A stretch of 64,000 nucleotides of DNA from Escherichia coli (lineage in GTDB: Bacteria; Pseudomonadota; Gammaproteobacteria; Enterobacterales; Enterobacteriaceae), in NCBI RefSeq assembly GCF_050320075.1, contig NZ_CP190018.1. The stretch is one strand, 5' to 3'. A program made the translations under genes and the position numbers. Under the pieces are notes generated by a model that made no database searches, was not told where the DNA came from, and saw only the letters and a list, made by a program, of their open reading frames with translations. How positions within the stretch are numbered: position 1 is the stretch's first letter; each line of letters begins with the position of its first letter. Of this stretch, positions 3,007-59,114 are shown piece after piece.

Positions 3007-3114
3007 TCAAGAAAGGCACCTGGGGCTGAAACGGTTAATGGCGAGATAATTTGCGGAAAGTGCAGATAATGAAAAGAAAAATGCCGGATGACACGAAGGT
3101 CATCCGGCATGACA

Positions 3115-4989
3115 TCAGGAAACCAGCAGCTGGTTCATACGACGAATAAACAGGTTCGGATCTTCCAGCGTGCCGCGTTCTGCCAGCAGCGCCTGATCCA
3201 GCAGCAGTTCTACCCACTCGCTGAACTTCGCTTCATCTTCAGTATCTGCCGCACGTTTCACCAGTACGTGATCCGGGTTCAGTTCAAAGATGTATTTCAC
3301 TTCTGGCACTTTCTGGCCCGCCGCAGCGAACAGTTTCGCCATCTGGGTGCTCATTTCGTCCGCATCGGTAGAGACAATCGCTGGCGTATCGGTCAGACGG
3401 TGAGTCAGACGGACATCTTTCACACGCTCGCCGAGCAGGGCTTTCACACGGTCGATGAACGGAGTCAGTGCTTTCTCCGCTTCTTTCGCGCTCTCATCAA
3501 CTTCGTCAGCCAGTTTTTCCAGCGACTCGTCAACTTTAGACACCGACTGGAACGGTTTACCGTCGAACTCAGTCAGATAGTTCATCATCCACTCATCGAT
3601 GCGGTCGGAAAGCAGCAGAACTTCGATGCCTTTCTTACGCAGCAGTTCCAGGTGCGGGCTGCTCTTCGCTGCCGCATAGCTGTCTGCGGTAATGTAGTAG
3701 ATTTTCTCCTGCCCTTCTTTCATGCGGGAAACGTAGTCTTCCAGAGACACGGTCTGCGCAGAAGAATCGGTATGGGTAGAAGCAAAACGCAGCAGTTTGG
3801 CGATCGCTTCCTGGTTAGCGAAATCTTCCGCCGGACCTTCTTTCAGTACCAGGCCAAACTGTTGCCAGAAGGTCTGGTATTTTTCCGCGTCGTCTTTCGC
3901 CAGTTTTTCCAGCATTTGCAGCACACGCTTGGTCAGCGCATTGCGCAGGTTACGCGTTACCGTGCTGTCCTGGAGGATTTCACGGGAAACGTTCAGCGGC
4001 AGATCGCTGGAGTCAATCAGACCACGCACGAAGCGCAGATAGTTCGGCATGAACTGTTCTGCGTCGTCCATGATGAACACACGCTGAACATACAGTTTCA
4101 GACCGTGTTTATGATCGCGGTTCCACATATCCCACGGTGCCTGAGACGGAATGTACAGCAGGCTGGTGTACTCCTGCTTACCTTCAACGCGGTTGTGGCT
4201 CCAAGTCAGCGGATCGTTAAAGTCGTGGGCGATGTGTTTGTAGAACTCTTTGTACTCTTCATCGGTGATTTCCGACTTGTTACGAGTCCACAGCGCCTGC
4301 GCTTTGTTGATTTTTTCCCAAGAGATAACGGTTTCGCCGTCTTTCTCTTCGCGTTTTTCGATCTCTACCGGCAGCGCGATATGGTCGGAGTATTTGCTGA
4401 TGATGGAACGCACGCGCCAGTCATCGAGGAACTCGTCTTCGCCTTCACGCAGATGCAGGGTGATTTCAGTACCACGATCTTCTTTGGTGATGTCGGCAAC
4501 GGTGTATTCACCTTCACCAGCCGATTCCCAGAAAACACCGTTTTCTGGTTTTTCGCCTGCCGCGCGAGTACGCACGGTCACTTTGTCGGCCACGATAAAC
4601 GCAGAGTAGAAACCAACACCAAACTGACCGATCAGCTGGCTGTCTTTCGCCTGGTCAGAACCCAGGGATTCGAGGAATGATTTGGTGCCGGATTTAGCGA
4701 TAGTCCCCAGATGGTCAATCACTTCGTCGCGGGTCATCCCTACGCCGTTATCGGAGATGGTCAGCGTACGCTTGTCTTTATCGAAAGAGACACGAACGCG
4801 CAGTTCGCCATCACCTTCGTACAGGTCCGGGTTAGAGAGCGCGCGGAAACGCAGCTTGTCCGCCGCATCGGAGGCGTTAGAGATAAGCTCACGCAGGAAG
4901 ATTTCTTTATTGGAATAGAGAGAATGGATCATCAGGTGCAGAAGCTGTTTCACTTCTGACTGAAAACCACGAGTTTCTTGTCCTTTCAT
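3115..4989 (-). CDS. htpG: Hsp90-family chaperone HtpG
   Basis: 624-aa ORF with GHKL ATPase N-terminus ([25 protein letters not shown]). Confidence 0.97.
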
Positions 4990-10000: not shown

Positions 10001-10040
10001 AAAAAATAAAGGGCGGCATCACTGTCGCCCTTTATTGTCC
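10001..10040. terminator. Shared hairpin between convergent ybaM and mscK (bidirectional terminator candidate)
   Basis: AAAGGGCG...CGCCCTTT stem flanked by A-run and T-run in the 41-bp convergent spacer. Confidence 0.5.
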
Positions 10041-35798: not shown

Positions 35799-35849
35799 TT
35801 ATTCCGGGTGTCGCCGGATGCGGCTTGAGCATCCGGCACCACAAAACGT

Positions 35850-52957: not shown

Positions 52958-53848
52958 ATGATGTTTAAGCAATACCTGCAAGTAACGAAACCAGGCATCA
53001 TCTTTGGCAACCTGATCTCGGTGATTGGGGGATTCCTGCTGGCCTCAAAGGGCCGCATTGATTATCCCCTGTTTATCTACACGCTGGTTGGGGTGTCACT
53101 GGTTGTGGCGTCGGGTTGTGTGTTTAACAACTACATCGACAGGGATATCGACAGAAAGATGGAAAGGACGAAGAATCGGGTGCTGGTTAAAGGCCTGATC
53201 TCTCCTGCTGTCTCGCTGGTGTACGCCACCTTGCTGGGTATTGCTGGCTTTATGCTGCTGTGGTTTGGCGCGAATCCGCTGGCCTGCTGGCTGGGGGTGA
53301 TGGGCTTTGTGGTTTACGTCGGCGTTTATAGCCTGTACATGAAACGCCACTCAGTCTACGGCACATTGATTGGTTCGCTCTCCGGCGCTGCGCCGCCGGT
53401 GATCGGCTACTGTGCAGTAACCGGCGAGTTCGATAGTGGCGCAGCGATCCTGCTTGCTATCTTCAGTCTGTGGCAGATGCCTCACTCCTATGCCATCGCC
53501 ATTTTCCGCTTTAAGGATTACCAGGCGGCAAACATTCCGGTATTGCCAGTGGTAAAAGGCATTTCGGTGGCGAAGAATCACATCACGCTGTATATCATCG
53601 CCTTTGCCGTTGCCACGCTGATGCTCTCTCTTGGCGGTTACGCTGGGTATAAATATCTGGTAGTCGCCGCGGCGGTTAGCGTCTGGTGGTTAGGTATGGC
53701 CCTGCGCGGTTATAAAGTTGCTGATGACAGAATCTGGGCGCGCAAGCTGTTCGGCTTCTCTATCATCGCCATCACTGCCCTCTCGGTGATGATGTCCGTT
53801 GATTTTATGGTGCCGGATTCGCATACGCTGCTGGCTGCTGTGTGGTAA
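52958..53848 (+). CDS. cyoE: Haem O synthase (protohaem IX farnesyltransferase)
   Basis: 296-aa polytopic UbiA-family ORF ending the cyo operon. Confidence 0.95.
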
Positions 53849-53996: not shown

Positions 53997-55361
53997 ATGA
54001 ACGATTATAAAATGACGCCAGGTGAGCGGCGCGCGACCTGGGGTTTAGGGACCGTATTCTCGTTGCGCATGCTGGGCATGTTTATGGTTCTGCCGGTTCT
54101 GACCACGTACGGCATGGCTCTGCAAGGTGCCAGCGAAGCATTAATCGGTATTGCCATTGGTATTTATGGTCTGACTCAGGCCGTTTTTCAGATTCCGTTT
54201 GGCCTGCTTTCCGACCGCATTGGTCGCAAACCATTAATTGTCGGTGGGCTGGCAGTGTTTGCCGCCGGTAGCGTTATCGCTGCGCTCTCTGACTCCATCT
54301 GGGGAATTATTCTGGGCCGGGCGCTACAAGGCTCCGGTGCGATTGCCGCTGCCGTTATGGCGCTGCTTTCCGATCTCACGCGCGAACAAAACCGCACCAA
54401 AGCAATGGCGTTTATCGGCGTGAGCTTTGGCATTACCTTTGCCATTGCGATGGTGCTTGGCCCGATCATCACTCACAAACTTGGGCTGCACGCGCTGTTC
54501 TGGATGATCGCTATTCTGGCAACGACCGGCATTGCGTTGACCATTTGGGTTGTGCCCAACAGTAGCACTCACGTACTTAATCGTGAGTCCGGAATGGTGA
54601 AAGGCAGTTTCAGTAAAGTGCTGGCGGAACCGCGGCTGCTGAAACTCAACTTTGGCATTATGTGTCTGCATATTTTGCTGATGTCGACGTTTGTTGCCCT
54701 GCCCGGACAACTGGCTGATGCGGGGTTCCCGGCGGCTGAACACTGGAAGGTCTATCTGGCGACAATGCTAATCGCCTTTGGCTCGGTCGTGCCTTTCATT
54801 ATCTACGCTGAAGTTAAGCGCAAAATGAAGCAAGTCTTTGTCTTCTGCGTTGGGTTGATCGTGGTTGCGGAAATTGTGTTGTGGAACGCACAAACGCAGT
54901 TCTGGCAACTGGTGGTCGGCGTGCAGCTTTTCTTTGTAGCGTTTAATTTGATGGAAGCCCTTCTGCCTTCACTTATCAGTAAAGAGTCGCCAGCAGGTTA
55001 CAAAGGTACGGCGATGGGTGTTTACTCCACCAGCCAGTTTCTTGGCGTGGCGATTGGCGGTTCGCTGGGCGGCTGGATTGACGGCATGTTTGACGGTCAG
55101 GGAGTATTTCTCGCTGGCGCAATGCTGGCCGCAGTGTGGCTGGCAGTCGCCAGTACCATGAAAGAACCGCCGTATGTCAGCAGCTTGCGCATTGAAATCC
55201 CGGCGGACATTGCCGCAAACGAGGCGTTAAAAGTGCGTTTGCTGGAAACCGCGGGCGTCAAAGAAGTGTTGATTGCAGAAGAAGAACATTCAGCTTATGT
55301 GAAAATCGACAGCAAAGTGACGAATCGCTTTGAGGTTGAACAGGCAATTCGTCAGGCATAA
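53997..55361 (+). CDS. yajR: MFS transporter YajR
   Basis: ORF track 520 aa; true start MNDYKMTPGERRATWG (454 aa). Confidence 0.9.
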   Translation: MNDYKMTPGERRATWGLGTVFSLRMLGMFMVLPVLTTYGMALQGASEALIGIAIGIYGLTQAVFQIPFGLLSDRIGRKPLIVGGLAVFAAGSVIAALSDSIWGIILGRALQGSGAIAAAVMALLSDLTREQNRTKAMAFIGVSFGITFAIAMVLGPIITHKLGLHALFWMIAILATTGIALTIWVVPNSSTHVLNRESGMVKGSFSKVLAEPRLLKLNFGIMCLHILLMSTFVALPGQLADAGFPAAEHWKVYLATMLIAFGSVVPFIIYAEVKRKMKQVFVFCVGLIVVAEIVLWNAQTQFWQLVVGVQLFFVAFNLMEALLPSLISKESPAGYKGTAMGVYSTSQFLGVAIGGSLGGWIDGMFDGQGVFLAGAMLAAVWLAVASTMKEPPYVSSLRIEIPADIAANEALKVRLLETAGVKEVLIAEEEHSAYVKIDSKVTNRFEVEQAIRQA

Positions 55362-55374
55362 AAAACGAGGCGAA

Positions 55375-55465
55375 TTGCCTGCTGCGCTACGCTTACCAGG
55401 CCTACAAAGTTCCTGAGTTACAAATCGTTGTAGGCCGAATTAGCTGTTCATGCTGCATTCGGCAT
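55375..55465. repeat. REP-like palindromic extragenic element between convergent yajR and yajQ
   Basis: Nested inverted repeats GGCCTACAA...TTGTAGGCC and GCCGAAT...ATTCGGC, typical of REP/BIME units. Confidence 0.55.
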
Positions 55466-55488
55466 GAACAAAACGCACATTGTCGCGA

Positions 55489-55980
55489 TTAATCGCGGAA
55501 GTTTTTGAACTGGAACGGCTGACCGAGATCGCCACCACGTACCATCGCCATGACAGCCTGCAAATCATCACGAGATTTACCCGTTACGCGGATCTCATCA
55601 CCCTGAATTTGCGCCTGCACTTTCAGTTTGCTGTCTTTGATCATCTTGACGATTTTCTTCTGGGTCGCGCTCTCAATGCCCTGTTTCAGTTTCGCTTCCA
55701 CAAACCAGGTTTTACCGCTATGAACGATATTTTCCGGTACATCCAGTGAACTGCCTTCAATGCCGCGCTTCAGCAGCTTGGCACGCAGAATATCCAGCAA
55801 CTGATTGACCTGGAAATCGGACTCGCTCAACACTTTGATGGTTTTGCTGGCGTCGTTCAGCTCAAATGAGGCTTCAACATTACGGAAGTCAAAACGGGAC
55901 TCCACTTCGCGGCTCGCGTTATCGACCGCGTTACGTGCTTCCTGAAGATCAACTTCAGAGACAATATCGAAAGATGGCAT
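55489..55980 (-). CDS. yajQ: Nucleotide-binding protein YajQ (UPF0234)
   Basis: ORF track 219 aa; true start [22 protein letters not shown] (163 aa). Confidence 0.92.
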
Positions 55981-56057
55981 CTTTTCCTCTCCCTTCATTT
56001 TTGATGCGAAGCATAATACCTGCAAAGTTAAATAACCAACAGTCCTGCACCAGGACG

Positions 56058-56105
56058 TATCCCTTAATTGTGCATAGTCGCAACAGCATGCACAATTAAG
56101 GGATA
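56058..56105. repeat. Perfect 18-bp inverted repeat with 12-bp spacer in yajQ-panE divergent intergenic region
   Basis: TATCCCTTAATTGTGCAT - AGTCGCAACAGC - ATGCACAATTAAGGGATA read directly; a second small palindrome GTCCTG-CAC-CAGGAC lies just upstream (56042..56056). Confidence 0.6.
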
Positions 56106-56147
56106 GCCTTATTGAACACCCGGAGTGGTTGCGGGTGAGGAGGAACA

Positions 56148-57612
<1,465 letters not shown>

Positions 57613-57660
57613 TGTCGGATGCGGCAAACGTCGCATCTGACCAGATGCGACGTAAAAAAC
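57613..57660. repeat. REP-like palindromes between convergent yajL and thiI
   Basis: GTCGGATGCGGC... with alternative hairpins GATGCG/CGCATC and GTCGCATCTG/CAGATGCGAC. Confidence 0.45.
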
Positions 57661-57665
57661 ACAAA

Positions 57666-59114
57666 TTACGGGCGATATACCTTCACATTGTTAAAGCCCT
57701 GCTCGCGCAGATAGAGCGCCTGCAGGCGGCTCATCACCCCGCGCTCACACCACAGCAGCCAGGTTTTGTTCTGGTCGAGATCGCCAAATTTGGTGCTCAG
57801 TTTATAGAACGGCAGAGAAACCACATCAATCCCTTCGACTTTCAGCGGCTTATCTTCCTGTTCATCGATAGAACGGATATCGAGGATCACGTCGTTCGGG
57901 CCGAAGCCATTGACGGTTTCCACTTCCACCACTTCCTGCTCGGTCTGCTGGGCGATTTCGCGGATATCAACGTTATTCGCTTCCTCAACCACTTTATCGA
58001 GAATGCTGAAGTCGAACTTCTCTTCTTCCGCTTCAATCTTCGATTTAACCGCTTTCACCGTCGGGCTTTTGGAGATCACACCGCAATATTCGGGCATCGT
58101 GCGGGCAAAGTCTTCAGTGCCAATCTGGCGAGCCAGGTTGATGATGTGCTCTTTGTCGTAAGAAATCAGCGGACGCAGGATCAGCGTGTCGGAGACGTTA
58201 TCAATCAGGCGCAGGTTAGTCAGCGTCTGGCTGGACACCTGGCCCAGTGCTTCGCCGGTGACCAGCGCCTGTACGCCGTAACGTTCAGCCACTTTAGACG
58301 CGGCACGCACCATCATACGTTTGAGGATAACGCCCATCTGACCGTCGTCGATTTTCTCGAGAATTTCCCCGACGACCGGCTCGAAATTAATAGCGACAAA
58401 ACGCACGCGGTGGGAGCTGCCAAAGCGGTTCCACAGATAATGTGCCACCTGACGCACGCCAATTTCATGCGCCTCGCCGCCGAGGTTAAAGAAGCAGTAA
58501 TGCACGCGGCAGCCGCGACGCATCAACATATAACTGGAAACACCGGAGTCGAAACCACCGGAAATGAGCGACAGCACATCTTCCTGGGTGCCGATCGGGA
58601 AACCGCCAATACCTTCGTAGCGACCTTTAATCAGCAGGAGACGATCGTCTTCCACTTCCAGATGGACAGTCACATCCGGATTGGTCAGCTTCACGCGCGC
58701 GGATTCAATATGCTGATTTAAACCGCCGCCGACGTAACGTTCCACATCAATCGAGCTAAAATCATGTTTGCCACGGCGCTTCACGCGTACGCAGAAGGTT
58801 TTCCCTTCCAGCTGATCGCGATACTGAACCAACGCTTTCTCGAAAATATCGTGCATGTCGGTAAACGGCACGTCTTCGACTTCGAGAATATGGTGGATAC
58901 CCGGAATACGGGTCAGGGCGTCGCGAATAGCCAGACGCTGGTTTTCATCTTTTGCGCGAACCTCGATGTTATCCCAGTGGCGGACGACAGCGAGCGTCTC
59001 ATCATAGTGCTTTAAAACGTTACGAATGTTCCCGGTAAGGATTTTTATAAAGCGCAAGCGCACAGATTGGCTTTTGATGGTGATTTCCGGGAACAATTTA
59101 ATGATAAACTTCAT
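57666..59114 (-). CDS. thiI: tRNA 4-thiouridine synthase / thiazole sulfur transferase ThiI
   Basis: 482-aa ORF with THUMP domain, PP-loop (SGGFDSGV) and C-terminal rhodanese domain. Confidence 0.96.

Follow-up and report, generated by a model that had tools for sequence, protein, structure and literature searches.

Two convergent gene junctions of Escherichia coli, yajR/yajQ and yajL/thiI, carry palindromic elements that are very probably vertically inherited REP/BIME relics in the 3' ends of the converging genes; any activity they have would be that of RNA hairpins. Neither is new: the two are catalogued for E. coli K-12 as REP40 (yajR/yajQ, here junction 1) and REP39 (yajL/thiI, junction 2). 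REP numbers follow EcoCyc, and the PU/BIME nomenclature is that of Gilson and Bachellier. They are two of several hundred E. coli REP sites, and the value of describing them lies mainly in correct annotation. The window, that is, the whole stretch of DNA that was analysed, is 64,000 nt (64 kb) of E. coli in reversed orientation relative to K-12, and coordinates below are positions in it unless K-12 is named. Across junction 1, a 261-nt stretch is 100% identical to strain 7/2 (NZ_CP023820.1), the closest genome. The genes concerned are cyoE (52958-53848, +), yajR (ending at 55361, +), yajQ (55489-55980, -), panE (56148-57059, +), yajL (ending at 57612, +) and thiI (57666-59114, -). A preliminary description, made from the sequence, had named yajR, yajQ, yajL and thiI and called both junctions convergent, which matches the annotation of strain 7/2.

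The same description had placed nested GC-rich palindromes at both junctions, and inverted repeats with structure above the shuffled expectation are indeed present in the two ranges. At junction 1 there are three perfect pairs, of 11 nt (55341-55351/55371-55381), of GGCCTACAA with TTGTAGGCC (55399-55407/55428-55436) and of 9 nt (55445-55453/55462-55470). Junction 2 has a perfect 12-nt pair with a 2-nt spacer (57628-57639/57642-57653) and a second pair at 90% identity (57614-57623/57632-57641). For the 127-nt yajR/yajQ spacer the folding energy is -41.5 kcal/mol on the + strand (z -3.1, equalled by 0 of 200 shuffles) and -41.9 kcal/mol on the - strand (z -2.1), and the two strands of the 56-nt yajL/thiI spacer give -23.3 (z -5.2) and -20.1 kcal/mol (z -3.7). 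A search of 54800-58200 against Rfam returned no family at E up to 1.

Junction 1 was compared with the REP family by means of a covariance model, R1, given that an nhmmer REP profile returned only matches with E near 1 and was too insensitive for a 40-nt model. R1 is based on 24 canonical REPs collected by a strict pattern from 267 kb of K-12; the K-12 yajQ copy was excluded from training, the other 23 were used, and the window was scanned with filters off. The two best matches in the whole window both fall at junction 1, at 55374-55408 on the + strand (24.7 bits, E 3.8e-5) and at 55427-55466 on the - strand (19.3 bits, E 0.0016). They agree closely with the range first proposed, 55375-55465, and at 50-54% GC they make the term 'GC-rich' moderately true.

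The left member of the pair is a z1-type REP of 29 nt (55377-55405, - strand). On the + strand it reads GCCTGCTGCGCTACGCTTACCAGGCCTAC, in iREP orientation, with CTAC at 55402-55405 and so GTAG on the - strand. It has 2 mismatches in 29 nt relative to the z1 copy of the K-12 mscK/ybaM BIME-1 and folds alone at -9.5 kcal/mol. The alternative classification of this element as a 'truncated Z REP' was rejected, as it is a full-length z1 REP. The right member is a y-type REP of 35 nt (55430-55464, + strand) with GTAG at 55430-55433 and the foot stem GCCGAAT/ATTCGGC. Published hallmarks of a REP are a GTAG that abuts the hairpin foot, a central mismatch of A12A13 opposite G26C27, and the residues T11, C27 and G32. 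The y REP has T11, T12, A13, G26, C27 and G32, and its middle is unpaired in the predicted fold; A12 has become T, a base that published SELEX found tolerated at position 12, and the pairing of the upper stem is degraded. Junction 1 hence shows both the GTAG and the imperfect stem of a REP.

The two REPs face each other across a 24-nt head-to-head linker (55406-55429), a shortened BIME-1 'L' linker without the IHF-binding core: in alignment, an 11-nt gap lies exactly opposite TCAATATATTG of two true K-12 BIME-1 copies. Over about 120 nt the junction is collinear with the K-12 mscK/ybaM BIME-1, through flank, y REP, linker and 29-nt z1 REP, and the outer flank GTGCG..TTGTTCATG is common to both. 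The composition is that of a BIME-1, with one y and one z1 REP in inverse orientation and in single copy. A 101-nt piece of the junction, used as query, matches each E. coli genome at a median of 36 places, and the pair is extragenic, between the convergent stop codons of yajR and yajQ. Table 2 of PMC10100675 names a REP40a for yajQ. The annotation of NC_000913.3 contains no REP features, but it omits even the known yaaX/yaaA BIME-1, and therefore the missing annotation is uninformative. Judged by its sequence, junction 1 is K-12 REP40, a BIME-1-type doublet with a truncated linker, because the R1 scores, the tetranucleotides, the collinearity with BIME-1, the copy number and the published REP40a entry all point to it. 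The REP/BIME type proposed for this junction is thus borne out by every sequence test run except the one for an IHF core in the linker.

That exception bears on the idea that the main role of junction 1 lies in chromosome structure, as a site on the DNA bound by IHF, DNA gyrase or DNA polymerase I, which is how other BIMEs have been described. The composition of one y and one z1 REP is that of BIME-1, whose L linker usually carries an IHF site according to published work, and it would fit such a role. However, the 11-nt IHF core is deleted in every Escherichia allele aligned, and a search of 55400-55435 for the IHF consensus WATCAANNNNTTR finds nothing with up to one mismatch allowed. Harris et al. 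2026 (bioRxiv 10.64898/2026.03.23.713779) furthermore report that REPs have no measurable effect on chromosome compaction or REP-REP contacts. We consider a mainly DNA-level role very improbable and retain the reading of junction 1 as a relic that could act as an RNA hairpin.

The predicted structure of the doublet is not restricted to its two REP hairpins. An alternative 9-bp hairpin, TGTTCATGC/GCATGAACA (55445-55470, an inverted repeat), pairs the loop and upper stem of the y REP (55445-55453, with GTTCATG) with 55462-55470 (GCATGAACA), a stretch that covers the last bases of the y REP and part of the outer flank conserved in BIME-1. This alternative is in competition with the hairpin of the y REP and dominates the minimum-free-energy fold on both strands.

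Junction 2 resembles a REP far less. Its range in the preliminary description, 57613-57660, spans two hairpins. The first is a REP39-like hairpin, GTCGGATGCGGC-AAAC-GTCGCATCTGAC (57614-57641, strandless), which starts 1 nt past the yajL stop and as RNA of the + strand folds at -20.4 kcal/mol (z -5.2). The second is a perfect 12-bp palindrome, ACGTCGCATCTG-AC-CAGATGCGACGT (57628-57653, strandless), the bidirectional terminator hairpin mapped in K-12 for thiI and panE-yajL, which is invariant in all seven alleles compared. R1 gives junction 2 only 6.3 and 5.4 bits, and the junction is absent among window-wide matches with E up to 10, so that by R1 score it departs from the family consensus. Its stem is fully paired save for two G-T pairs and has no AA/GC bulge. 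A search for the conserved REP tetranucleotide, which had been suggested as a check, finds GTAG and CTAC in place at junction 1, but at junction 2 the GTAG (57609-57612) is separated from the stem by 1 nt and is formed by the GAG-TAG (Glu-stop) codons of yajL, which are also found in Lelliottia. With a 61-nt query the median is 2 places per genome, although this short query in 28 Gb has limited sensitivity; we infer that the two places are the locus itself and the palindrome's own opposite-strand match, with no second copy. Junction 2 is therefore apparently not multi-copy in the manner of a REP.

What ties junction 2 to REPs is its arms. All three resemble REP tail arms, and the arm TGTCGGATGCGGC carries the 10-mer CGGATGCGGC, which occurs 16 times in 267 kb of K-12 where 0.5 occurrences are expected; 15 of the 16 are in clear REPs and the sixteenth is junction 2. 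According to Harris et al. 2026, 78 REPs lie inside 306 mapped bidirectional terminators, and a row in the listed part of their Table S16 gives K-12 443004-443039, equivalent to window 57624-57659, as a bidirectional terminator whose stem has 11 bp (-17.4 kcal/mol), seen in log and stationary phase and assigned to yajL:panE:thiI. The same row gives 0 A in the 5' flank and 2 U in the 3' flank, and a 20-nt overlap with REP39, with REP locations taken from EcoCyc. This overlap fits the left hairpin, 57614-57641. The 306-terminator set, ref. 47 in Harris et al. 2026, is presumably that of Ju et al. 2019. The REP/BIME type proposed for junction 2 is thus supported by the REP39 listing and the diagnostic 10-mer, whereas the R1 score, the missing bulge, the displaced GTAG and the copy number speak against it. 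Junction 2 is probably a REP relic whose working part is the 12-bp palindrome at 57628-57653. The proposed REP39 ancestry rests on the diagnostic 10-mer and the annotation, and REP39 would be a REP in name more than in sequence.

These differences decide how far the two junctions could be simple, unique intrinsic terminators that merely look like REPs, which had been named as the outcome that would overturn the REP assignment. The low score of junction 2 against the REP model, its apparent lack of a second genomic copy and its listing in Table S16 as a mapped bidirectional terminator would all fit, as would the plain yajR/yajQ terminators of 32-35 nt in Enterobacter-type genera (among the matches listed; see below). 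At junction 1, however, the E-values of 3.8e-5 and 0.0016, the GTAG and CTAC in place, the BIME-1 alignment of about 120 nt and the tens of similar places per genome are not those of a unique element; no T-run comes after either REP hairpin, and the yajQ end maps elsewhere. Even at junction 2 the arm TGTCGGATGCGGC holds a 10-mer that is otherwise confined to REPs in 267 kb of K-12, and the listed catalogue entry is REP39. Unique terminators are hence refuted at junction 1, and junction 2 is closer to one while probably being REP-derived. For the two junctions together we judge this explanation unlikely and keep to REP relics.

The transcript ends place REP40 within RNA. Term-seq data of Adams et al. 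2021 (PMC7815308, Supplementary file 1) contain a 3' end at K-12 445327(+), sense to yajQ, with 5179 reads in one growth condition and 1381 in another. This position, checked on the sequence, is window 55336, 5 nt past the hairpin CAGGCAATTCG...CGAATTGCCTG, which belongs to the 3' end of the yajQ transcript (55336-55381, - strand; arms 55371-55381 and 55341-55351). The hairpin folds at -22.3 kcal/mol (z -2.9), and in its loop are a U6 run and, in complement, the stop codon of yajR. Because the mapped 3' end falls beyond the pair, yajQ transcripts in K-12 continue across both REPs and have their end at a hairpin spanning the yajR stop; all mapped RNA ends are from K-12, from which the y REP of the window strain differs at 7 positions. 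For yajR no 3' end was found in the mapped-end datasets examined. A pattern scan gave one candidate, the hairpin TCGCGATTAATCGCGG followed by T5 (55483-55505, + strand), which overlaps the yajQ stop; its -7.3 kcal/mol (z -0.9) is no better than shuffles. The listed rows of Table S16 in Harris et al. 2026, which span the REP40 coordinates, hold no bidirectional-terminator entry for REP40/yajQ. Rho-dependent regions lie downstream of the junctions at K-12 445853(+), 443228(+) and 442717(-), the last two flanking junction 2 (Adams et al. 2021, PMC7815308).

A role as mRNA stabiliser, also put forward in the preliminary description, or as terminator is plausible and partly documented. Harris et al. 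2026 describe REPs as context-dependent terminators and stabilisers, place about 60% of those in E. coli between convergent genes and note a REP in about 30% of convergent spacers, but find no general effect of terminal REPs on half-life. At the two junctions, the yajL stop is 1 nt from the first hairpin, thiI is 12 nt from the second, and yajR is 15 nt from the z1 REP. Reportedly, Liang, Rudd and Deutscher found in 2015 that ribosomes are stalled during termination by REPs lying no more than about 15 nt from the stop codon, and given distances of 1, 12 and 15 nt this effect could apply here.

A comparison of REP content across E. coli genomes shows that the position and number of REPs are constant in all alleles examined. 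Of 5426 complete genomes searched, 5424 match the 261-nt junction-1 query, and 5284 of these cover at least 80% of it at the REP40 site; the junction-2 element is likewise present in 5424 of 5426. The claim that these elements vary between strains therefore holds for point substitutions but not, among the alleles examined, for REP copy number at either site. The yajR/yajQ spacer is a local peak of divergence, with 12 differences per 100 nt relative to K-12 against a background of about 2. One larger replacement is an exception: strain 1368KP has SEL1/TPR genes instead of yajR and the REP pair. That strain also has a different hairpin beside yajQ, and in some other E. coli strains TPR/SEL1-repeat protein genes lie between cyoE and yajR.

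The y REP of the window carries 7 lineage-specific substitutions within 22 nt (55441, 55444, 55445, 55454, 55459, 55460 and 55462), which set it apart from all other alleles sampled, including those of the cryptic clades. The derived allele is found in 586 of 5426 genomes (about 11%), in single copy in each; in the same search, 3 genomes match at 90-99% identity. The changes at 55459, 55460 and 55462 alter the 3' arm of the foot so that it pairs perfectly with the 5' arm (GCCGAAT/ATTCGGC, 7 bp), and those at 55445 and 55462 bring the competing flank/loop hairpin from 7 bp to 9. The y-REP hairpin folds at -12.7 kcal/mol (z -3.8) in the window, compared with -10.2 kcal/mol (z -0.5) in K-12. The data do not support a second REP as donor in a gene conversion: the 35-nt derived sequence is always single-copy in its carriers, and therefore no donor is visible. 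Strain A19 was considered as a close relative without the derived allele, but at 4.8% regional divergence it cannot date the change. Templated correction of a quasipalindrome, or host selection for the RNA or DNA hairpin in a lineage without the transposase, is a tentative and rather doubtful source of the 7 substitutions; if host selection were true, it would speak for REP hairpins being maintained to the advantage of the host and not of the transposase. Ordinary drift in a fast-evolving spacer could also have produced them.

Further observations on REPs come from other parts of the window. At 10013-10023 the K-12 mscK/ybaM BIME-1 is absent and only a plain terminator hairpin is present, a clean polymorphism of REP presence and absence. 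The site of K-12 REP38 (pgpA/yajO) holds AT-rich DNA in the window (63378-64000), which according to the annotation of strain 7/2 encodes the start of a pentapeptide-repeat protein gene running off the window end. Short, nearly perfect GCCGGATG...CATCCGGC hairpins without GTAG are found at 35810-35845 and 3080-3115 (weak R1 scores, E 0.1 and 0.08); the former is the homologue of K-12 REP41 at fadM/queC, which the listed part of the terminator table also gives as a bidirectional terminator.

The remaining function named in the preliminary description, a site for the REP-associated transposase, is unlikely here because hicB replaces the transposase gene rayT in strain 7/2. In that genome, hicB occupies the yafL-lfhA interval, the only locus known for tnpAREP, and hicAB at this position is a replacement of tnpAREP (Ton-Hoang et al. 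2012). No rayT is found in the 64-kb window. Across E. coli, rayT is present in 3575 of 5426 genomes, which matches the two-thirds of Ton-Hoang et al. 2012. Judging from the canonical locus of strain 7/2 and from the window, the host is probably without rayT, and if so its REP40 and REP39 copies are fossils. Also in strain 7/2, a tnpA pseudogene and a TnpB gene of the IS200/IS605 type interrupt a DUF3251 gene where K-12 has yajI.

Live TnpA-REP/RayT substrates, with cleavage, recombination or copying behind the strain differences, would be the opposite of fossils. The y REP does keep GTAG, T11, A13, G26, C27 and G32, a perfect foot stem and an unpaired middle; CT dinucleotides are close by; and the mscK/ybaM BIME-1 of K-12 is missing in the window. 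Against this, position and REP number are the same in every allele examined and only point substitutions are seen, the derived y-REP allele is single-copy in 586 of 586 carriers, and hicB is at the rayT locus in strain 7/2. Published work shows that the central AA/GC mismatch is needed by the REP transposase and that perfect stems abolish TnpA-REP binding and cleavage, and the stem of REP39 is fully paired. It is highly unlikely that the two elements are live substrates, and vertical inheritance as relics is the reading that we carry forward.

The same two spacers were followed in other genera through a DNA-pattern scan of species genomes, and statements on genera hold among the matches listed. 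Among these, the yajR/yajQ spacer is a bidirectional terminator of 32-35 nt (A-run, hairpin and T-run) in Enterobacter, Leclercia, Lelliottia, Siccibacter and Trabulsiella, and in Citrobacter, Pseudocitrobacter and two cryptic-clade Escherichia genomes it contains two REPs head to head. Genus-specific REP doublets are found in the yajL/thiI spacer of Leclercia, Lelliottia, Pluralibacter and others, again among the matches listed. Because the genera show either plain terminators or REP doublets of their own at these places, both convergent spacers are, as far as sequence can tell, recurrent REP sites. They offer a small, clean illustration of REPs settling at terminator sites across the Enterobacteriaceae.

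Taken together, the following course of events can be proposed. REP40 is transcribed within the yajQ 3'UTR, as the K-12 end shows, and probably within the yajR 3'UTR too; should yajR transcripts cross the pair, which is predicted, there would be an overlap between the two 3'UTRs. From the general REP literature, the REP40 hairpins may slow 3'-to-5' exonucleases and pause or attenuate RNA polymerase, and Rho may give back-up termination further downstream. Junction 2 is a degenerate REP-like arm fused to the perfect 12-bp palindrome, at which the convergent thiI and panE-yajL transcripts of K-12 have their mapped ends; it would hence work for both as a bidirectional, U-tract-poor terminator or as a hairpin that protects their 3' ends. 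Neither element is likely to be mobile in a host that apparently has no rayT.

Compared with K-12 REP40, junction 1 is at the orthologous position and shares the two REPs in their head-to-head order, the 24-nt linker and the outer flank, with 95% column identity over 171 nt. The difference lies in the 7 derived substitutions of the y REP, by which the foot stem is perfected and the upper stem weakened, the opposite of K-12. Unlike a typical BIME-1, REP40 has a linker without the 11-nt IHF core. With its two inverted REPs and short spacer it is similar to the REPINs of Bertels and Rainey 2011 (PMC3116915), and in the minimum-free-energy fold the REP heads GGCCTACAA and TTGTAGGCC pair into one long hairpin, as in a REPIN. 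In contrast to REPINs, it shows no sign of recent replication, given one allele copy per genome and no rayT at the canonical locus. Canonical bidirectional terminators also differ from the yajR/yajQ junction, which in E. coli has a 127-nt spacer and of which only the yajQ end is mapped, inside the coding end of yajR. Junction 2 differs from K-12 REP39 in one aligned base; the hairpin of 11-12 bp and its flanks are the same, and the structure is unchanged. Relative to canonical REPs, REP39 lacks the AA/GC bulge, has its GTAG shifted by 1 nt and consists of three arms of the 'tail-arm' kind. Like canonical bidirectional intrinsic terminators, yajL/thiI has one hairpin for both convergent transcripts, although this hairpin is not a classic A-tract/U-tract terminator.
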